From Alphaproteobacteria bacterium (GTDB taxonomy: Bacteria > Pseudomonadota > Alphaproteobacteria > MPNO01), in the NCBI GenBank assembly GCA_964291675.2, contig OZ219866.1, positions 3,296,001 through 3,360,000 of the forward strand: a DNA stretch of 64,000 nucleotides. Reading direction: 5' to 3'. The notes beneath the pieces are model-generated. The model searched no databases. It worked only from the letters and a program-made list of their open reading frames with translations, and was not told where the DNA came from. Below are positions 11,219 to 22,002 of this stretch, piece by piece. The position numbers and the translations under genes were made by a program. The stretch's first letter is position 1, and each line of letters starts with the position of its first letter.

Positions 11219-13557
11219 CGCGCGGCCGCGACGGGTTCGAGCGGCGCCGCGCCGCGCCCGGCGGCGATGCGCGCCGCGTCGACCGGGCCGTAGGTCGTCG
11301 AGCGCTGGCGCGGCAGGCGCCCGGCGCCCGCGATCAGCGCGTCCATCTCGTCGGGCGGCAGCTCCTGGCCGTGCGCCGTGCCCGCGGCGCGCGAGATGCT
11401 CTCGTTCATCAGCGTGCCGCCCAGATCGTTGACCCCGGCATCGAGGCAAGAGGCCGCGCCCTCGCGCCCCATCTTCACCCAGGACACCTGGATGTTGGGG
11501 ATCGACGGGTTGAGCGCGAGCCGGGCCACGGCGTGCATCAGCACGGCCTCGCGCCAGGTCGGGCCCTTGCGCGCCTTGCCGCGGAGATAGATCGGCGCCT
11601 CCATGTGGACGAAGGGGAGCGGCACGAACTCGGTGAACCCGCCGGTGTCGGCCTGCAGGTCGCGCACCGCGTTGAGGTGCCGCGCCCAGGACGCCGGCCC
11701 CTCGACGCTGCCGAACATGACGGTCGCGGTGGTCCTGAGTCCCAGCCGGTGCGCGGTGCGGATCACCGACAGCCACTCGTCGACCGTCACCTTGTCGGGG
11801 CAGAGGATTTGGCGGATCGGGGGATCGAGGATTTCCGCCGCGGTACCGGGCAGCGAGCCGAGCCCGGCATCGATCAGCCGTTCCAGGAAGGCGTCCACCG
11901 GCAGCCCCAGCGTCGCCGCGCCCTGGCTGATCTCGAGCGGCGAGAAGGCGTGGACGTGCATCTCGGGCGCCACGCGCTTCACCGCGCGGGCGATCGCGAC
12001 ATAGGTCTCGCCGGTGTAGTCGGGATGGATGCCGCCTTGCAGACAGACTTCCGTCGCGCCGCGCACCCACGCTTCGGCGACGCGCCGCTCGATCTCCTCG
12101 AGGTCGAGGTCGTAGGGGGTGCCGCGCAGCCCGGCGCTGGAGCGCCCCTTGGAGAAGGCGCAGAACCGGCAGGCATAGGTGCAGATGTTGGTGTAGTTGA
12201 TGTTGCGGTTGACGACATAGGTCACGACATCGCCGGACACCTCGCGCCTGATCGCATCCGCCGCCGCGACCACGGCATCGAACCGCCCGGCCCGCGCGCC
12301 GAACAAATGCACGATCTCCCCAATCTCCAGCCGCATGCCCGCGGCGGCGCGGTCGATTATGGGTGCGAGGTCGTCGGTGCGGATCGCGGGAGCCCGGACT
12401 GCGCGGTCCGCCGGCGGGCCTTCGGCGACCCCGGGAGCCCAGAAATCGGGCCTGGCGAACCCCTCCGAATCGATCGTGCGGCGCACCGCGGGCGCGAGCG
12501 CGGGATCGACCCAGCGTTCCGCGTCCAGCGCATAGGCCGGGTAGACCGCCAGACGCTCGACCAGCAGCTTGCCGGCGGCGGCGCTCTGCCGCGCGAGCGC
12601 GTCGATCTCCGGCCACGGCGCCTCCGGGTTGACGTGGTCCGGGGTGACCGGCGAGACCCCGCCCCAGTCGTTGAGCCCGGCGGCGATCAGATCGGGCCAG
12701 GTCCCGGCGCTCAGATTGGGCGGCGCCTGGATGCTCATCGCCGGGCCGAGCACGTGGCGCGCGGCGGCGACCGTCCAGGCGAGCTCTTCCGGCGCCGGCT
12801 CGGGCGCGCCCGCCATGCGGGTGCCCGGCTTGGCGCGGAAGTTCTGCACGATGACTTCCTGGATGTGGCCGTGCGCGCGATGCAGCTCGGCGATGGCGAA
12901 CAGGTCGTCGAGCCGTTCCGCCCGGGTCTCGCCGATGCCGATCAGGATGCCGGTGGTGAAGGGGACGGCGAGCTCGCCGGCCTCGCGGAGGGTGGCGAGC
13001 CGGGGGCCGGGCCGCTTGTCGGGCGAGCCGAAATGCGGGAAGCCGCGCCGCGCCAGCCTCTCCGACAGGCTTTCGAGCATGATCCCCTGCGACACCGAGA
13101 CCTCGCGGAGCGCGGCGATATCGGCGCGGCCCAGCACCCCCGGGTTGACATGCGGCAAGAGCCCGGTCTCCTCGAACACCAGCCGCGCCGCGTGGACCAG
13201 GTATTCGATCGTCGTCCCGAAGCCCAGCGCGGCCAGCGCCTCGCGCGCCGCGCGGTAGCGCAATTCGGGCTTGTCGCCGAGGGTGAACAGCGCCTCCTTG
13301 CAGCCGGCCTTCCGCCCCGCCTCGGCGATCGCCAGCACCTCCTCCGGCGACAGATAGGCGGCGACGCCGCGCCGCGGCGGCGCTGCGAAGGTGCAGTAAT
13401 GGCAGACGTCGCGGCAGAGCCGGGTCAGCGGCACGAACACCTTGCGCGAATACGACACCGTATGCCCGAACCCGGCATCGCGCAGCCGCACCGCCTCCGC
13501 CGCCAGCTCGTCATACGGGGCGGCGAGCAGGTGGCGGCGGAGGTCCTCGCGGTTCAT
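11215..13557 (-). CDS. fbiC: Bifunctional FO synthase (CofG-CofH fusion)
   Basis: Two radical-SAM motifs, CRDVCHYC and CTYACRFC; PFTTGILIGIGE; SLPGTAAEIL; DLGGTLMNESISRAAG; ATG at 13557. Confidence 0.96.
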   Translation of the reverse strand: MNREDLRRHLLAAPYDELAAEAVRLRDAGFGHTVSYSRKVFVPLTRLCRDVCHYCTFAAPPRRGVAAYLSPEEVLAIAEAGRKAGCKEALFTLGDKPELRYRAAREALAALGFGTTIEYLVHAARLVFEETGLLPHVNPGVLGRADIAALREVSVSQGIMLESLSERLARRGFPHFGSPDKRPGPRLATLREAGELAVPFTTGILIGIGETRAERLDDLFAIAELHRAHGHIQEVIVQNFRAKPGTRMAGAPEPAPEELAWTVAAARHVLGPAMSIQAPPNLSAGTWPDLIAAGLNDWGGVSPVTPDHVNPEAPWPEIDALARQSAAAGKLLVERLAVYPAYALDAERWVDPALAPAVRRTIDSEGFARPDFWAPGVAEGPPADRAVRAPAIRTDDLAPIIDRAAAGMRLEIGEIVHLFGARAGRFDAVVAAADAIRREVSGDVVTYVVNRNINYTNICTYACRFCAFSKGRSSAGLRGTPYDLDLEEIERRVAEAWVRGATEVCLQGGIHPDYTGETYVAIARAVKRVAPEMHVHAFSPLEISQGAATLGLPVDAFLERLIDAGLGSLPGTAAEILDPPIRQILCPDKVTVDEWLSVIRTAHRLGLRTTATVMFGSVEGPASWARHLNAVRDLQADTGGFTEFVPLPFVHMEAPIYLRGKARKGPTWREAVLMHAVARLALNPSIPNIQVSWVKMGREGAASCLDAGVNDLGGTLMNESISRAAGTAHGQELPPDEMDALIAGAGRLPRQRSTTYGPVDAARIAAGRGAAPLEPVAAAR

Positions 13558-16528: not shown

Positions 16529-17511
16529 GCGGCTTCGGGGTGAGCTTCGACGGCTTCGCGAGCTTCGCAGATGCGCTCGCGCTCGCCCGCCGCGCCGAGG
16601 CGGCGGGCGCGGACGGGCTGTGGATGGCCGAGCATCTGGGCTACCGCCAGTCCCTGGTCTCCTGCACCGCCTTCGCGCTCCGCACCGCGCGCGCCACCGT
16701 GGTGCCGACCGCGATCAGCCCCTATCTCTGGTCGCCGGTCTCGGTGGCGATGGCGATGGCGACCATCGCCGAGGCGGCGCCCGGACGTGCCGCGCTCGCG
16801 CTCGGCTCGGGCAACCCGATGTTCCTCGCCGAGGCGGGCGCGAAGCTGGAGAAGCCGCTCGCGGCCATGCGCGAGTTCATCGCCTGTCTGCGCCAGCTCT
16901 GGTCCGGCGAGAAGGGCGCCTTCGAGGGCGAGATGTTCCGCCTCGACGGCATGCGCATGGCCTTCCTGCCGCCTGAGCCGATCCCGCTCTACCTCGCCGC
17001 GATGGGACCCAGGATGCTGCGGCTCGCCGGCGAGCTCGCCGACGGGGTGGTGCTGTCGGCCGGGCTCACGGCCGGGTATTGCGCCCAATCCCTCGCCACG
17101 GTCGAAGCCGGCGCGAAAGAGGCGGGCCGCGACCCGGCGGCGCTCAGGCGCGCGGCCTATGTCTACATCGCCGTCGATCCCGACCGGGCGGCGGCGGTCG
17201 AGCGTCTGCGGCCCAAAATCGCCTTCATGATGCGCAACGATTTCGTCGCCCCGAGCGTCGCCGGATCCGGCATCGCCGTCGACCGGGATGCGGTCAAGGA
17301 CGCGATCGCGCGGCGCGACATGGACGCGGCCGCGGCGCTGATCCCCGACGAGGCGGTCGAGGCGTTCGCCGTCTGCGGCACGGCCGACGACTGCGCGGCG
17401 CGCATCGCCCAGTACCGCGCCACCGGGATCGAGGAGATCGTGCTGCTGATCGCAGGCGACGCGGCGGGCGAGACGGCCGCGCTCGAGCTGATCGGCGCGC
17501 TCGGTGCATAG
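16525..17511 (+). CDS. LLM-class oxidoreductase (Mer-like, probably F420-dependent)
   Basis: WMAEHLGYR, ALALGSG, PIPLYLAAMGPRMLRLAGELADGVVL; ATGA overlap with the upstream gene; next to the F420 cluster. Confidence 0.88.
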   Translation: MSGFGVSFDGFASFADALALARRAEAAGADGLWMAEHLGYRQSLVSCTAFALRTARATVVPTAISPYLWSPVSVAMAMATIAEAAPGRAALALGSGNPMFLAEAGAKLEKPLAAMREFIACLRQLWSGEKGAFEGEMFRLDGMRMAFLPPEPIPLYLAAMGPRMLRLAGELADGVVLSAGLTAGYCAQSLATVEAGAKEAGRDPAALRRAAYVYIAVDPDRAAAVERLRPKIAFMMRNDFVAPSVAGSGIAVDRDAVKDAIARRDMDAAAALIPDEAVEAFAVCGTADDCAARIAQYRATGIEEIVLLIAGDAAGETAALELIGALGA

Positions 17512-17530
17512 CCGCGATCTGTGAAGGGCG

Positions 17531-18181
17531 TCAATCGGCGCTTGCGGGCCTGACAAAACGGAAATCCTCGCGCAAGCGAGCAATGTCAACGCTTCCCCAG
17601 CATCGGGCGGTGAGTTGCGCGCCCTTTGGAGGGAACGCCCCGTGGATCACCTTGATGCCTCTGGTTTCGAGGAATTCGGCCACCGGTACAAAATCCCGGT
17701 CGGACGACACCAGAACGGCGATGTCATAGTTGTCGACCCAGGCAAGACTGATCATGTCGGTTGCCATGCGGACATCGACGCCTTTTTCCTCGGTCCCCCG
17801 CATATCCGACCCACAGGCAGGGCATTGGCCCACCGCCGCATGGCAGGCAGGGCAAGCCGGTGGCGACCGCTTCCGCTGGCGCGGAACGATCGATACGCTC
17901 ACGCCGGGAAACGTGTTCACTACTGTTGTCGCCCACCGGCGAAGTTTCCGATCCGCTCCGCTGACCGGATCGTATGAGCCATAGAAGTTGAGGCCTTGGT
18001 ACTCGCCCGTCGCGGCGGTATCGACAACTGACGTCGCCGCTCTCGACAACGCCTGACCCAGCCTTGTCCAGTCGGTGCGGAACGCCGCATCGGCATCTCG
18101 CATCGAAAGCGTGTAGTTCCAGAAATCGACGAACACCCGGACCCAGTGGCGTGGACTACGGATCGGATCGTCACCGGTCAT
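17531..18181 (-). CDS. NYN-domain (PIN-like) ribonuclease with inserted Zn-ribbon
   Basis: VFVDFWN, EEKGVDVRMATDMI, DIAVLVSSDRDFVP acidic catalytic motifs; CPAC...CPACG insert; lower GC than the flanks; alternative GTG start at 18193. Confidence 0.9.
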   Translation of the reverse strand: MTGDDPIRSPRHWVRVFVDFWNYTLSMRDADAAFRTDWTRLGQALSRAATSVVDTAATGEYQGLNFYGSYDPVSGADRKLRRWATTVVNTFPGVSVSIVPRQRKRSPPACPACHAAVGQCPACGSDMRGTEEKGVDVRMATDMISLAWVDNYDIAVLVSSDRDFVPVAEFLETRGIKVIHGAFPPKGAQLTARCWGSVDIARLREDFRFVRPASAD

Positions 18182-18188
18182 GGCAGTC

Positions 18189-18289
18189 GGCACAAGATAT
18201 ACAGGGACGCGCGAGGCGTCCCTGGGGTCAGGATGATCGGACCCCGTATCTCCCTGTCTGGGCGGTAGTCCGATGGGTCATCTTGCACC
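18189..18289 (-). ncRNA. Putative structured leader/ncRNA upstream of the NYN gene
   Basis: 10-bp closing stem GGUGCAAGAU/AUCUUGUGCC (two G-U pairs); 9-bp hairpin 18202-18224; 6-bp hairpin 18224-18245; extra complementary pairs 18236-18242/18268-18274 and 18201-18207/18251-18257. Confidence 0.5.
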
Positions 18290-18291
18290 GC

Positions 18292-18320
18292 AATGTATAC
18301 CCCTGCAGCGGGAATTGCAA
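18292..18320 (-). promoter_or_regulatory. Putative sigma70 promoter of the leader/NYN transcript
   Basis: Minus strand TTGCAA-17 nt-TACATT; the predicted +1 (~18286) falls in the 5' arm of the closing stem. Confidence 0.5.
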
Positions 18321-18343
18321 TCCGCTCCGCGAGCCCGCCGCGC

Positions 18344-19450
18344 TCAGCCGATGACGATCAGCCGGTCGTTGTCGGTGGCGTCGGACAGGAGCTCGGCGCC
18401 GCGCTCCGCGACCGCCACCATGTCCTTGAGCTGCATGCCGTAGCCGTGGCCGGTGCGGTAGACCAGCGGCTCGAAGCCCATGACCGTGCCGGCCCGAAGC
18501 ACGGTGTCGTCATGCGCGGCGAGATAGGGCGCCTCGTGCAGATTGAGCCCGATGCCGTGCCCGACGAAGGCGATGGGCGGCAGGCCGAGCTTGCCGAACT
18601 CCGCGAGGAAGGCGGCGTAGATGTCGCTGGCGACCGCGCCCGGGCGGATCATGTCCAAGAGCATGTGCTTGCAGCCCACCAGATTGGCCCAGATCCGCTC
18701 GGCGTGCTCGGGCGGCTCGCTCACCGCCGCCGTGCGGCAGACCCCGGCATGGTAGCCGCCGATCATCGAGAAGATCTCGACCCGGCAGACATCGCGCGGT
18801 TCGAGCACGCGGTCGGTCGGCCCGACATTGGGGAGCTCGCTGCGCGGGCCGGTGGCGACGATCATCAGCCGGAACTGCTCCGCCCCCTGTTCGTAGACGC
18901 TCCGGGTCAGCGCCGCGCCGAGGTCCATCTCGGTATCGCCCGGCGAGACCGCGGCGAAGGCATCGCCGATCGCGCGATCGGAAATCCGCGAGAGCCGACG
19001 TAAAAGGTCGATCTCGTCCGGCGTCTTGATCCGCCGCATGCCGTCGAGCGCCGCGTCGATGGCGACGAACTCCGCTGTCGGCATCGCCGCCTGGAGGCGG
19101 GCGAAATCGGCCGCCGGCAAATAGTCGAGCTCGATCCCGATGCGCGCGAAGCCGAGTCGGGCGAGCTCGTCGGCGAGCACCGCCATCGCGTCGTCGGTGA
19201 ACTCGCCCCAGGCGCGCACCGGCACCTCGCCCGCCCGCCCGGCGACGGTGGTCTCCTCCATGTCGACGCAGACATAGGCGGTGTCCGTGTGCCCGACGAC
19301 GGCCATCGCGTGGCGCCAGCGCATGATCGGCTGCGAGGGGACGACGAAGCCTGCGACCCAGCCGAAATTCTCCGGCGAGACCGCCACCGCCGCGTCCAGC
19401 CCGGCGCGTTCCATCTCCGCCCGCAGGCGGCTCAGCACCGCGTCACGCAT
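18344..19450 (-). CDS. M24 (Xaa-Pro peptidase/creatinase fold) family hydrolase
   Basis: RRIKTPDEI, GHGIGLNLHEAP, FEP motifs; creatinase-N-like start MRDAVLSRLRAEMERAGLDA; several metal ligands altered. Confidence 0.88.
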   Translation of the reverse strand: MRDAVLSRLRAEMERAGLDAAVAVSPENFGWVAGFVVPSQPIMRWRHAMAVVGHTDTAYVCVDMEETTVAGRAGEVPVRAWGEFTDDAMAVLADELARLGFARIGIELDYLPAADFARLQAAMPTAEFVAIDAALDGMRRIKTPDEIDLLRRLSRISDRAIGDAFAAVSPGDTEMDLGAALTRSVYEQGAEQFRLMIVATGPRSELPNVGPTDRVLEPRDVCRVEIFSMIGGYHAGVCRTAAVSEPPEHAERIWANLVGCKHMLLDMIRPGAVASDIYAAFLAEFGKLGLPPIAFVGHGIGLNLHEAPYLAAHDDTVLRAGTVMGFEPLVYRTGHGYGMQLKDMVAVAERGAELLSDATDNDRLIVIG

Positions 19451-20739: not shown

Positions 20740-20997
20740 ATGAGCCTCAACATCAAGAACGCCGAAACCTGCCGCCTCGCCGCCGAGCTCGCCGAGCTGA
20801 CCGGCGAGACCAAGACCGGCGCGATCACCGTCGCGCTCCGCGAGCGCCTGGCGCGCGAGAGGCGGGCGCGCGACAAGGAAGCGCTGCTTCGCGACATCCG
20901 CGCCATCGCCGAGAGCTGCGCGAGCCTCATGGGACCGGGACCCTCATCGGACGAGATCGGCGACTTTCTCTACGATGAGCGCGGGTTGCCGAAATGA
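20740..20997 (+). CDS. vapB: VapB antitoxin (Rv0623-like)
   Basis: MSLNIKNAETCRLAAELAELTGETKTGAITVALRERL...LYDERGLPK; ATGA overlap with vapC. Confidence 0.92.
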   Translation: MSLNIKNAETCRLAAELAELTGETKTGAITVALRERLARERRARDKEALLRDIRAIAESCASLMGPGPSSDEIGDFLYDERGLPK

Positions 20998-21380
20998 TCA
21001 TCGACAGTTCGGCGGTCGTGGCGATCCTCAACCGCGAGCCGGAGGCCGAACGCTACGAGGAGGCGATCGCCACGGCCACACAACCGCGCGTTTCCGTCGC
21101 CAGCCTGTTGGAGGCATCCATCGTCGTGGAGGGCAGGGGTGGCGCTGCGGCGGGCGATCAACTCGACCTCCTTGTCCAACGTTTCGGAATTGCGTTGGAG
21201 CCGGTGACGGTCGAGCAGATGCAGGCCGCCCGCCGCGCCTGGCGGCGCTTCGGCCGGGGCAACCACCCGGCGGCGCTCAATTTCGGCGACTGCTTCGCCT
21301 ACGCGCTGGCCGAGACCACCGGCGAGAAGCTGCTCTACAAGGGCGAGGACTTCGCCAGGACCGACGTGGAGGCGGCGTGA
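20994..21380 (+). CDS. vapC: VapC PIN-domain toxin
   Basis: MIIDSSAVVAIL..EPE, FGRGNHPAALNFGDCFAYALA, LLYKGEDFARTD. Confidence 0.95.
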   Translation: MIIDSSAVVAILNREPEAERYEEAIATATQPRVSVASLLEASIVVEGRGGAAAGDQLDLLVQRFGIALEPVTVEQMQAARRAWRRFGRGNHPAALNFGDCFAYALAETTGEKLLYKGEDFARTDVEAA

Positions 21381-21461: not shown

Positions 21462-21692
21462 ATGGCGATGGGCGAATGTCCTATCGAGAGCAACTCCGAG
21501 ATCCTCGGGGGCGTCCCGGTGTTTTCCGGCACTCGGGTTCCGGTGCGTATCCTGATCGAGCATCTGGAGGCGGGCGACCGGCTGGACGAGTTCCTGGAGG
21601 ACTTCCCCACGGTCTCGCGCGATCAGGCCGTCGCCGTTCTCGAACGGGCGAAGGCGATGCTGGCCGGCGAGGCGCATGAAGCTGCTGCTTGA
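21462..21692 (+). CDS. DUF433 domain protein (putative antitoxin)
   Basis: EILGGVPVFSGTRVPVRILIEHLEAGDRLDEFLEDFPTV. Confidence 0.9.
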   Translation: MAMGECPIESNSEILGGVPVFSGTRVPVRILIEHLEAGDRLDEFLEDFPTVSRDQAVAVLERAKAMLAGEAHEAAA

Positions 21693-22002
21693 CGAGTCCG
21701 CGCCGAGGCGGCTCGCCGCGTCCTTTCCCCAATCGATCGAGGTTTGCACCGTCCAAGAGATGGGATGGGCGGGGAGCACGAATGGGGAACTACTACGACT
21801 CGCCGCGGCAGACGGGTTCGATGCCCTCCTCACCGTGGACCGCGGCTTCGAACACGAGCAAAATCCCGACAACCTGCCTGTTCCCGTGATCATCGCGATC
21901 GCCGCCCGAAGCCGTCTTTCGGAACTGCGGCCTCTGGTCCCCGATGTCGTGGCGGTACTGTCCAGAAGTCTGGAGCGGCGAATCTACCGCGTCCAGGCCT
22001 GA
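21676..22002 (+). CDS. DUF5615 PIN-like protein (putative toxin)
   Basis: MKLLLDES.PRRL, TVQEMGWAG..NGELL, LLTVDRGF; overlaps the DUF433 gene. Confidence 0.88.
   Translation: MKLLLDESAPRRLAASFPQSIEVCTVQEMGWAGSTNGELLRLAAADGFDALLTVDRGFEHEQNPDNLPVPVIIAIAARSRLSELRPLVPDVVAVLSRSLERRIYRVQA

Follow-up and report, generated by a model that had tools for sequence, protein, structure and literature searches.

A mobile cassette pairs an NYN nuclease gene with a dedicated structured RNA that may act as its antitoxin

The window analysed here, a 64,000-nucleotide stretch of an alphaproteobacterial genome, carries between two convergent genes a compact cassette consisting of an NYN nuclease gene and, upstream on the same strand, a predicted small RNA gene with its promoter (Table 1). 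The gene order is promoter, two-module RNA of about 95 nt, terminator and NYN gene, with no promoter visible between the RNA and the NYN gene. The insertion is precise. In 11 of 11 same-genus genomes the cassette is absent and the two flanking genes are directly adjacent, and the junctions were set by alignment to the empty sites of genomes G009 and G010. The cassette, about 0.84 kb in length, has no recombinase of its own. The GC content of the NYN gene is 0.61-0.63, compared with about 0.70-0.75 in the flanks, in agreement with the lower GC reported in a preliminary description of the locus. A dispersed REP-like repeat, which the same description had listed as a point to be checked, is ruled out by the presence of a single copy of the RNA element in its 4.8-Mb genome, as judged by BLAST and by covariance model.

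Table 1. Features of the cassette and its RNA, in positions of the window
Feature	Position	Strand	Details
Inserted cassette (NYN gene, RNA gene and promoter)	17503..18338		about 836 bp; from empty-site comparison and lower GC
Direct repeats flanking the cassette	17496-17502 and 18339-18345		CGCGCTC, 7 nt
Sigma-70-type promoter	18292..18320	(-)	-35 TTGCAA (18320-18315), 17-nt spacer, -10 TACATT (18297-18292)
Predicted RNA gene	18192..18285	(-)	about 94 nt; made up of two modules: short A/U-rich leader with ACCC at its end, then hairpin
Module-1 leader	18275..18285	(-)	CAAGAUGACCC; consensus CAAUACAACCC; predicted RNA 5' end; conserved columns 11-21
Hairpin 1	18236..18274	(-)	outer helix AUCGGAC (18274-18268) with GUCCGAU (18242-18236); 14 pairs
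Hairpin 1 interior			CCG/CGG, then CCC (18262-18260) with GGG (18254-18252); 3' internal loop AGAUA
Module-2 leader	18225..18235	(-)	CAUCCUGACCC; consensus CAUCAUGACCC
Hairpin 2	18202..18224	(-)	CAGGGACGC, loop CUCGC, GCGUCCCUG; terminator stem; sequence nearly invariant
U-rich tail	18192..18201	(-)	UAUAUCUUGU; weaker than in most relatives (e.g. UAUUUUUUUG)
NYN nuclease gene	17531-18181	(-)	216 aa from ATG at 18181; GTG at 18193 also in frame
Zn-ribbon-like insert of the NYN protein			CxxC..CxxC; CPACHAAVGQCPAC

The open reading frame matches the Pfam NYN domain (PF01936; E 1.9e-14, 54.8 bits against a curated cut-off of 24.2). Across an alignment of 41 homologs residues D19, D161, D163, C110, C113, C120 and C123 are invariant, and at least 90% of the sequences retain D136 and D142, confirming the initial view of a stand-alone NYN gene with intact acidic motifs and a CxxC..CxxC element. 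The AlphaFold model of the protein (mean pLDDT 86.1) has a PIN-like fold, its nearest structures in a Foldseek search being the LabA-like VPA0982 (2qip) and MARF1 NYN domains, with E-values of 1.5e-6 to 5e-4 and a probability of 1.00 against 2qip, 5yaa and 6fdl at a sequence identity of 11-18%. A PADLOC scan of the protein returned only the HEC-09 and NYN models, the former matching residues 118-191 of 216 (model positions 89-165 of 203) with an E-value of 6.3e-13. Comparison of neighbours in homologous loci revealed no conserved partner gene beside the NYN and RNA genes, as had been supposed from the window.

The sigma-70-type promoter read in the preliminary description is present, and since it matches the consensus at only 8 of 12 positions a simple promoter scan made no call in the window. 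Among 92 distinct upstream regions of homologous loci, 62 nevertheless have a sigma-70-like site whose end falls on model positions 3-5; promoter scores average 8.4 of 12, and 7.0 in shuffles. Transcription is predicted from the promoter position to start at about 18285, and both ends of the RNA of about 95 nt are predictions, from the promoter and the U-tract. The window RNA scores 122.9 bits with its covariance model and 111 bits with model R2. The two leaders are alike (64% identity, the best of 84 offset windows with a mean of 25% and an sd of 8.7%), the likeness between the modules being confined to these 11 nt. An AUG within the window's module-1 leader is not conserved, and a leader peptide was rejected. 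Hairpin 2, a 9-bp hairpin followed by a U-rich tail, is for this reason terminator-like, and it was called as such by a terminator scan in both the window and locus L033. At least six T residues follow within 10 nt of hairpin 2 in 66 of 91 distinct copies (six in the window), and in the homologous copies the start codon lies about 15-30 nt after the hairpin and T-rich tail, excepting four divergent loci described below.

The fold of this RNA is conserved and covaries. Over 93 distinct sequences 97.2% of 2107 alignment cells pair, and 18 of the 23 pairs show compensatory changes on both sides. Double-change cells number 137, compared with 25.9 in shuffles, a value that none of 500 shuffles reaches, and slid controls yield 1-6 pairs with changes on both sides. 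A structure-blind MAFFT alignment gives 94.1% paired cells and again 18 of 23 pairs, so that the conserved covarying structure proposed at the outset as a check among homologs is found with two alignments. All 11 of 11 pairs of the hairpin 1 outer helix are changed on both sides (94.8% of cells pair), as are five of the nine pairs of hairpin 2 (99.8%). The excess of G-U cells (81) over A-C cells (20) identifies the NYN-coding strand as the one that folds. Taken alone, the window RNA has a moderately unusual fold (z -2.57, equalled by 3 of 200 shuffles), and the evidence for structure is therefore comparative.

This fold retains part of the one first drawn. The 9-bp hairpin at 18202-18224 is the covarying, terminator-like hairpin 2. 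The pairing of atcggac with gtccgat (18236-18242 with 18268-18274) likewise covaries, but as the closing helix of the nested hairpin 1 and not as the pseudoknot that had been considered; a mutual-information scan of the RNA alignment detected no pseudoknot. The outer 10-bp stem does not survive comparison, with 54.0% of cells pairing against 53.1% in shuffles, and roughly half of the nucleotides in its 5' strand precede the site where transcription is predicted to begin. Nor does the 6-bp hairpin at 18224-18245 (72.0% against 71.8%), which would form at the expense of the conserved helix. The other pairing proposed, acaggga/tccctgt, can form in 88% of cells; covariation is all but lacking, however, and wherever the terminator covaries the pairing is broken. 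Conserved unpaired nucleotides occur in both internal loop and linker. Hairpin 1 can do without its inner part, in place of which loci L091, L093, L135 and L136 have a plain short hairpin. A search of Rfam 15, also called for in the preliminary description, identified no family at the element in positions 17000-19000 at E-values up to 10, and none at the motif of seven further loci at gathering score, where the sole hit was RNAI elsewhere on an Aeromonas plasmid. The RNA is thus a family of about 100 members with strong covariation that is absent from Rfam 15.

The motif occurs in about a hundred bacterial genomes and plasmids of many phyla. When loci were collected by the protein, all 80 proved to have the RNA motif adjacent to the NYN gene; several of them are close relatives and not independent, and they represent at least nine phylum-level groups, across which the NYN homologs are 54-85% identical. 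Roughly 840 further homologs exist. Model R1 detected 78 of these motifs and model R2 the remaining two, in L082 (E 1.8e-10) and, on the opposite strand, in L092 (E 9.8e-8). At L074 a DDE transposase separates motif and NYN gene. An RNA-anchored search with the exact hairpin-2 pattern yielded 18 metagenome loci, of which 15 contain the whole motif and the other three are unrelated palindromic hairpins. Twelve of the 15 have an NYN gene directly downstream on the same strand (nine intact, three internally deleted) and three are orphans. Among 150 other genomes of the class the RNA model made one true match, in G133 (L139), where an intact motif precedes a remnant encoding NYN residues 1-47 only; four weak matches, with no NYN gene, look like ordinary terminators. 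Of 400 other genomes of the phylum, one has an NYN protein of the Hoeflea type. The RNA-NYN linkage is near-obligate, in either orientation, and the original proposal, that the NYN nuclease belongs with a structured RNA of its own and lacks a protein partner, is strongly supported.

None of the 80 protein-anchored loci has an NYN gene without the RNA. Conversely, of 94 distinct motif instances 77 accompany an NYN gene that is intact as far as readable, 12 accompany one with stops, frameshifts, deletions or reduced to remnants, and five have no NYN gene within 800 nt. Part of this asymmetry of decay is expected from target size, the open reading frame being 650 nt and the RNA 95 nt, and errors of assembly may account for some of the frameshifts seen in metagenome-assembled genomes.

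The cassette is mobile and is present on small plasmids. Homologs are found on plasmids of 6-12 kb, with the RNA motif upstream there too in L132, L133 and L134, and on small plasmids the cassette sits beside rep and mob genes, in L135 next to an RNAI gene. Its genomic surroundings are mainly ordinary metabolic genes. Of 34 loci sampled, 8 have a toxin-antitoxin, defence, phage or transposase gene as a neighbour, or 9 if the transposase of L074 is included, and a defence-island setting was rejected as a general rule. The exact hairpin-2 pattern has no match in viral contigs, and a phage collection gave a single weak partial NYN match. Many of the carrier taxa have names derived from sponge hosts.

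In four loci the motif lies on the strand opposite to the NYN gene: L092 and L144, of the Hoeflea type, and L135 and L136, on Aeromonas and Cobetia plasmids. These are distant homologs falling in two NYN subclades, and their motifs score 30-36 bits (E 1e-7 to 1e-9). Promoters can be read on the RNA strand (TTGACA-17-CATATT in L092, TTGTTC-17-TATAAT in L135), a U-tract follows the motif in L092, L135 and L136, and in L092 a separate NYN promoter is read between the two genes. With its own promoter on the opposite strand in these homologs the RNA is a separate gene and not only a leader.

We consider it about an even chance that the locus is a self-contained two-part module, of a small structured RNA gene and an NYN endoribonuclease gene, that follows the RNA-antitoxin logic of type III and AbiF-like systems. 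The RNA most likely holds the nuclease in check in the manner of an antitoxin; its transcription, its binding to the protein, the toxicity of NYN and its neutralisation by the RNA are inferred. As we envisage it, a constitutive sigma-70-type promoter would drive the RNA of about 95 nt, with two modules each comprising an A/U-rich leader that ends in ACCC and a hairpin, and hairpin 2 with its U-tract would stop most transcripts. The RNA would consequently be in excess and NYN mRNA made only by read-through. The RNA would bind the NYN protein directly and keep the nuclease inactive, and NYN may in turn cut the RNA in its A/U-rich leaders. Were the RNA supply to stop, because the cassette or plasmid is lost or a phage shuts off host transcription, the nuclease would be freed. 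The logic would be that of type III toxin-antitoxin systems and of AbiF/RCd22, realised with another nuclease fold and another RNA. Slightly more tentatively, the pair may constitute an undescribed class of RNA antitoxin and protein toxin, type III-like with a PIN-like NYN toxin, in which each ACCC-plus-hairpin module is a binding, perhaps cleavage, site; at about 0.84 kb it would be among the smallest known autonomous addiction or defence cassettes, spread over at least nine phyla and small plasmids. No NYN-associated RNA partner was found described in the literature, where related loci might be listed in the supplements to publications on type III and HEC systems. Counted against an RNA-antitoxin module is the reported failure of HEC-09, by model the nearest tested relative, to protect against phage (10.1101/2024.01.29.577857, in the part of that report available). 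The mostly ordinary metabolic neighbourhood and the absence of a tandem repeat array, which defines type III loci, from the window and L136 weigh against it as well.

Almost all of these observations would fit, too, if the RNA-protein contact served autoregulation. The RNA would then act mainly in cis, NYN binding or cleaving its own 5' leader or stabilising the terminator hairpin and so limiting its own synthesis, and NYN would be no toxin but have another cellular or plasmid role. For 79 of the 80 loci collected by the protein, the RNA does lie between the only visible promoter and the open reading frame, with the terminator just before the start codon, the near-invariant sequence of hairpin 2 is as expected of a protein recognition site, and RCd22 is reported to act in cis on abiF expression as well (10.1101/2025.04.15.648962, available text). 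We judge such a leader unlikely, if a serious contender, as in the four divergent loci, from two NYN subclades, the RNA has its own promoter and cannot be a leader, orphan RNA copies persist without NYN, and the mobile, patchy, cross-phylum spread is left unexplained. The divergent strand of L092, L144, L135 and L136 bears equally on a riboswitch, in which hairpin 1 would be a small-molecule aptamer and hairpin 2 the terminator expression platform controlling NYN; a riboswitch or cis attenuator would be expected always in the 5' leader, on the strand of the gene that it regulates. The order of promoter, conserved structured element, terminator and open reading frame would suit a riboswitch, as would the conserved unpaired nucleotides of internal loop and linker. 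It is nonetheless very improbable: the inner part of hairpin 1 can be dispensed with, the terminator stem is the most conserved part, neither alternative pairing shows clear covariation as an anti-terminator (one stands at 72.0%, with shuffles at 71.8%, and the other can form in 88% of cells), and an Rfam riboswitch match is absent.

The strict linkage in either orientation is also compatible with an RNA that is a substrate, cofactor or scaffold processed by NYN for a non-toxic function such as maintaining the cassette or plasmid, controlling its copy number or moving it, a view to which the rep and mob neighbours on small plasmids, the RNAI gene of L135 and the minimal cassette of about 0.84 kb, with its 7-nt direct repeat and no recombinase, would lend themselves. 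It appears decidedly doubtful given that the predicted RNA has no variable guide segment, running from a conserved leader at the 5' end to a terminator at the 3' end, that nothing links NYN to DNA transactions, that viral contigs contain no exact hairpin-2 pattern, and that NYN domains of known activity are RNases, as the structural match MARF1 is described to be (10.1101/2024.01.29.577857, available part). Divergent small RNAs beside toxin genes are known from type I systems (PMC3401426, in the portion available), and the four divergent loci here recall a type I-like antisense RNA that base-pairs with NYN mRNA to block translation or trigger decay. This is scarcely credible, since the duplexes predicted with the first 130-150 nt or so of the NYN mRNA region do not surpass those of shuffled RNAs, which pair as well in 12 of 40 (L092), 31 of 40 (L135) and 28 of 40 (L136) cases. 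The toxin, moreover, would be a 216-aa nuclease and not a small membrane peptide, and in L092 the separate NYN promoter between the genes means that the two transcripts need not overlap.

An RNA family of about 100 members gains a specific, testable protein partner. Should the RNA neutralise the nuclease, RNA-antitoxin systems would extend beyond ToxN-like and AbiF-like toxins to the very large PIN/NYN superfamily, and a search for a partner RNA would be worthwhile for thousands of 'orphan' NYN genes that lack a partner protein. Direct tests are easy because of the very small size of the cassette, its exact limits as set by empty sites, and its presence also on small plasmids and in cultured strains, the cultured carriers including Novacetimonas hansenii C110 (pKHC110_1), Paracoccus seriniphilus DSM 14827 (p12374) and Hoeflea marina DSM 16791.

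HEC-09, a PADLOC candidate defence gene combining a Zn-ribbon with a MARF1-like NYN domain, is reported embedded in Hma systems and gave no protection against any phage tested (10.1101/2024.01.29.577857, available part). The protein described here resembles it as a single-gene NYN with a Zn-ribbon-type element and a MARF1-like fold that matches its model (E 6.3e-13), but the match covers residues 118-191 and not the full length, the cassette lies mostly among ordinary genes, and the available text of that report mentions no RNA associated with HEC-09. With the LabA-like and MARF1 NYN structures (2qip, 5yaa and 6fdl) the protein shares its fold and a conserved acidic pocket, whereas those chains, as far as the alignments show, have no Zn-ribbon insert at that position. 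We know of no dedicated RNA partner for LabA-like or MARF1 NYN domains.

The gene arrangement is closest to RNA-antitoxin systems. As in the type III systems ToxIN, CptIN and TenpIN (PMC3401426; PMC8860590; PMC13682666), the RNase gene follows a terminator palindrome with the RNA region, there antitoxic, and promoter upstream (PMC3401426, in the part available), and here too the palindrome, hairpin 2 with its T-rich tail, stands 15-30 nt before the start codon, the four divergent loci apart. Type III loci likewise occur on chromosomes and plasmids, and truncated toxins beside intact RNA are reported there as well (PMC3401426, available text). In such systems the RNA binds and inhibits the toxin and is processed by it, as is proposed here for the NYN pair. 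According to the same source their defining feature, upstream of the terminator, is a tandem array of 1.9-5.6 repeats of 31-62 nt. Tandem Repeats Finder (minimum score 30) returned no rows in the window or in L136, so that such an array is lacking, and in its place are two dissimilar hairpin modules that share an 11-nt leader. The protein is an NYN domain and not a member of the ToxN, CptN or TenpN families; ToxN is related to the Kid/MazF endoribonucleases (PMC3401426, available text), a different fold, and the pseudoknot is not supported here. For AbiF_Cd and RCd22 of Clostridioides difficile direct RNA-protein neutralisation is reported in cis and in trans (10.1101/2025.04.15.648962, in the part available). 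The likeness to that pair extends, in the same source, to the sigma-A/sigma-70 promoter, the RNA of about 100 nt with two short conserved motif copies and a Rho-independent terminator, and the toxin gene that has no promoter of its own, is reached by read-through and is without a protein antitoxin. Our pair, known from sequence alone, differs in that the protein is a PIN-like NYN and AbiF an Abi_2/HEPN-type protein, that the abiF-motif RNA model (RF03085) has no match in positions 17000-19000 at E-values up to 10 or in seven further loci at gathering score, that the motif's second hairpin serves as the terminator as well, and that some loci are divergent. On the best reading this is an RNA-protein module of a known kind, type III- or AbiF-like, in which a different toxin fold and a different RNA family would be new.

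The NYN nuclease gene and its upstream RNA lie in a precise insertion (see table), which holds these two elements, the RNA promoter and nothing else. The flanking convergent genes, encoding a luciferase-like monooxygenase and an M24 peptidase, are directly adjacent, without the cassette, in 11/11 other genomes of the genus, and GC content is 0.61–0.63 across the NYN gene against about 0.70–0.75 in the flanks, bearing out the lower GC attributed to it in the preliminary description. Two genomes of the same genus (G001 and G004) carry a related cassette at different genomic places; in G001 its neighbours, judged from their translations, are candidate MazF/PemK-type toxin and AbrB-type antitoxin genes and a ParD/CopG-type protein. 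Two toxin-antitoxin-type pairs also occur in the window, 2.5–4 kb away from the cassette.

Features of the cassette, the RNA consensus and related loci (L, individual loci with a NYN homolog and/or RNA motif; positions are those of the window unless a locus is named)
Feature	Position or locus	Strand	Detail
Extra DNA	about 17503-18338		836 bp; junctions aligned with two empty sites
CGCGCTC, two copies bounding the cassette	17496-17502 and 18339-18345		junction alignment
NYN gene	17531-18181	minus	216 aa; in-frame GTG also at 18193
RNA leader 1	5' end of consensus		CAAUACAACCC
RNA hairpin 1			outer helix AYCGGRY/RYCCGRU around CCG/CGG and CCC/GGG; internal loop on 3' side
RNA leader 2	between hairpins		CAUCAUGACCC
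RNA hairpin 2			CAGGGACGC-loop-GCGUCCCUG; U-rich tract after
Premature NYN stops	L033, L038, L042, L046		
NYN frameshifts	L078, L079, perhaps L054		
NYN deletions	L104, L111, L112		
NYN remnants	L016, L018		
Toxin-antitoxin-type pair	20740-21380	plus	Rv0623-like antitoxin (PF07704) and PIN-domain VapC-type gene
Toxin-antitoxin-type pair	21462-22002	plus	DUF433 gene overlapping DUF5615/PIN_10 gene
Related cassette in G001	L012, 279-1299		NYN with premature stop at W21 position
Motif copies and RES genes	L059, 1015-2997		two copies with similar promoters, 1.8 kb apart, bracketing an Xre-like/RES-domain pair; NYN after second copy only; another RES gene downstream
Interrupted cassette	L074, 1265-3708	minus (transposase)	DDE transposase gene (440 aa) between intact motif and NYN body; NYN N-terminus cut off
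Tandem NYN genes	L091, 1894-2818		second NYN-domain ORF (212 aa) directly upstream of motif; motif between the two genes diverged, with short hairpin 1
Cassette in Erythrobacter MAG	L093, 1283-4849		between phage terminase large-subunit and portal genes
ORF downstream of orphan motif	L109, about 11300-12700	minus	N-terminus resembles a phage Gp37/Gp68-type (DUF5131) protein
ColE1-type RNAI gene (RF00106, 55.8 bits)	L135, 3670-3772	minus	just downstream of NYN, Aeromonas plasmid

The window protein matches Pfam PF01936 (NYN domain, 54.8 bits, E 1.9e-14), and the acidic motifs and CxxC..CxxC insert first noticed in its sequence are indeed intact, as D19, D161, D163 and C110, C113, C120, C123 are invariant in an alignment of 41 homologs and D136 and D142 are kept in at least 90% of them. 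The structures nearest to its AlphaFold model (mean pLDDT 86.1, pTM 0.80) are LabA-like 2qip and the mouse and human MARF1 NYN domains (Foldseek E 1.5e-6 to 5e-4). Residues 118-191 match the PADLOC model HEC-09 (E 6.3e-13), the nearest defence-candidate model, which gave no protection in the one study testing it (10.1101/2024.01.29.577857).

Both the RNA family itself and its association with this NYN subfamily have good support. Used as a BLAST query against relatives, the 162-nt spacer finds 78–84% identical DNA upstream of NYN homologs, one from another family, and the element also adjoins NYN remnants in two genomes (G008, G019). A first covariance model, made from six copies and run on 80 loci fetched by protein alone from one-genome-per-species contigs, matches the coding strand immediately upstream of NYN in 78; the last two are matched by a second model, for which 96 hits were used, leaving 0/80 without the motif. 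NYN identity to the window protein across these loci is 54–85%, and their host labels comprise Alpha- and Gammaproteobacteria, Binatia, Gemmatimonadota, Acidobacteriota (Vicinamibacterales, Holophagales), Latescibacterota, Rhodothermales, Dehalococcoidia, Spirochaetia and Acidimicrobiales, several bearing sponge-derived candidate names (e.g. Poriferisodalis, Poriferihabitaceae). The exact hairpin-2 pattern matches 18 metagenome stretches and no viral contig; the whole motif is present in 15/18, the other three being unrelated palindromic hairpins, and these 15, several of them near-duplicates of one another, are followed by an intact NYN (9), an internally deleted NYN (3) or none (3). In 150 other genomes across the class the RNA model finds one true copy, adjoining a 47-residue NYN remnant; four weak matches there look like ordinary terminators. 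The element is single-copy in its own genome, and the preliminary reading thus survives the check for a dispersed repeat.

The predicted RNA comprises two modules, each with a short A/U-rich leader that ends in ACCC and then a hairpin. In an alignment of 93 distinct sequences, itself fitted to the covariance model, standard pairs occupy 97.2% of 2107 cells, both sides change at 18/23 pairs and 137 double-change cells are observed against 25.9 in shuffles; none of five covariation measures is reached by shuffles (0/500), and slid controls give just 1–6 pairs with both-side changes. A structure-blind MAFFT alignment is 94.1% paired, again with 18/23 pairs, and nearly all of the top mutual-information pairs are pairs of these helices. 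The excess of G-U over A-C cells (81 vs 20) indicates that the NYN-coding strand is the one that folds. When leader 1 is compared with 84 offset windows in the main family, leader 2 is the most alike (64% identity; mean 25%, sd 8.7%). A conserved, covarying structure is therefore present, and the fold originally drawn is half right: its 9-bp hairpin is hairpin 2, and the pairing taken for a pseudoknot is real and closes hairpin 1 as its outer helix, a mutual-information scan of the alignment finding no pseudoknot. Its outer 10-bp stem and 6-bp hairpin pair at chance level (54.0% against 53.1% in shuffles and 72.0% against 71.8%, respectively). The alternative, ACAGGGA with UCCCUGU, could pair in 88% of cells, which is due to conserved sequence rather than covariation.

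In 62/92 distinct upstream regions the last base of a sigma-70-like site falls at model positions 3–5; the mean match is 8.4 of 12, compared with 7.0 when the flanks are shuffled. The TTGCAA-17-TACATT promoter proposed for the window is the equivalent site, but it matches at only 8 of 12 positions and is not called by a simple scan; its position predicts a start at about 18285, where the conserved leader begins. At least six T residues occur in the 10 nt after hairpin 2 in 66/91 distinct copies, hairpin 2 is terminator-like by scan tool in the window and in L033, and within about 15–30 nt downstream lies the NYN start codon, frequently preceded by a G-rich stretch. Promoter and terminator together predict an RNA of about 94 nt, from 18285 to about 18192, and the NYN mRNA would be reachable only by read-through past the hairpin-2 terminator.

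No flanking ORF family recurs across the loci, consistent with the reported absence of a protein partner; ORF clusters found in 20 or more loci all overlap NYN itself. Neighbours are mostly metabolic genes, with a transposase, integrase, toxin-antitoxin, defence or phage gene (including PhdYeFM, RES twice, AbiEii and KwaB-like) at 8/34 sampled loci, or 9/34 counting the L074 transposase. In the Erythrobacter MAG the cassette occupies the place where a prophage or GTA would carry an accessory gene. Across 94 distinct motif instances, NYN is intact as far as readable in 77 (including three natural C-terminal stops and one contig-end cut), damaged in 12, where some frameshifts may be assembly errors, and absent within 800 nt in five (L074 with its IS, L059 copy 1, L109, L119 and L120). 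The layout of L059 suggests duplication or recombination between motif copies. Conversely, the RNA is present at all 80 protein-anchored loci. An antitoxin-toxin pair predicts such an asymmetry, which is partly expected from target size too.

More distant NYN homologs (32–53% identity), on 6–12 kb plasmids of cultured bacteria, bear on how the RNA acts. In the Pararoseomonas (E 8e-17), Novacetimonas (1e-9) and Paracoccus (1e-5) plasmids the motif precedes NYN and shares its strand. In two other plasmids, from Aeromonas and Cobetia, and in Hoeflea marina and its relative G292, it lies on the opposite strand (30–36 bits, E 1e-7 to 1e-9), transcribed away from NYN. Putative promoters stand there at the usual distance (TTGACA-17-CATATT in L092, of the Hoeflea type, and TTGTTC-17-TATAAT in L135, the Aeromonas plasmid), with hairpins and a U-tract after them. 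A leader acting in cis only and a riboswitch are therefore poor fits, and so is an antisense RNA against the NYN mRNA, predicted duplexes of the divergent RNAs with the mRNA start region being equalled by shuffled RNA. The short divergent versions have a simple stem-loop as hairpin 1, and their modules look more alike, for example in Cobetia AUUAAUACCUA plus hairpin and AUAUAUGCCUA plus hairpin. The Aeromonas plasmid also carries merR/merT further upstream.

These arrangements best fit a trans-acting RNA recognised by the NYN protein. Judging from the architecture, the linkage in both orientations, the decay pattern, the mobility and analogy, we put at about one in two the probability that the RNA would neutralise the NYN nuclease; an autoregulatory leader of NYN is considerably less probable, and a non-toxic role of NYN in RNA processing slightly less probable again.

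No description of an RNA partner of NYN proteins was found in the literature (supplementary files excluded), and the RNA matches neither the abiF model nor any other Rfam 15 family. Type III loci, as defined in PMC3401426, have a toxin gene after a terminator palindrome, itself after tandem repeats of 31–62 nt; the NYN module shares the terminator before the gene, Tandem Repeats Finder detects no such repeats in the window or in L136 (the Cobetia plasmid), and the NYN fold is unlike the type III toxins covered there. The closest published analogue is AbiF/RCd22. According to 10.1101/2025.04.15.648962, its sigma-A promoter is followed by an RNA of about 100 nt that carries two abiF motifs and by a Rho-independent terminator, the toxin gene lacks a promoter of its own, and the RNA neutralises the toxin by contacting it directly, in cis as well as in trans. 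The NYN-RNA cassette is best filed with the RNA-antitoxin/protein-toxin modules, the RNA family itself being new.
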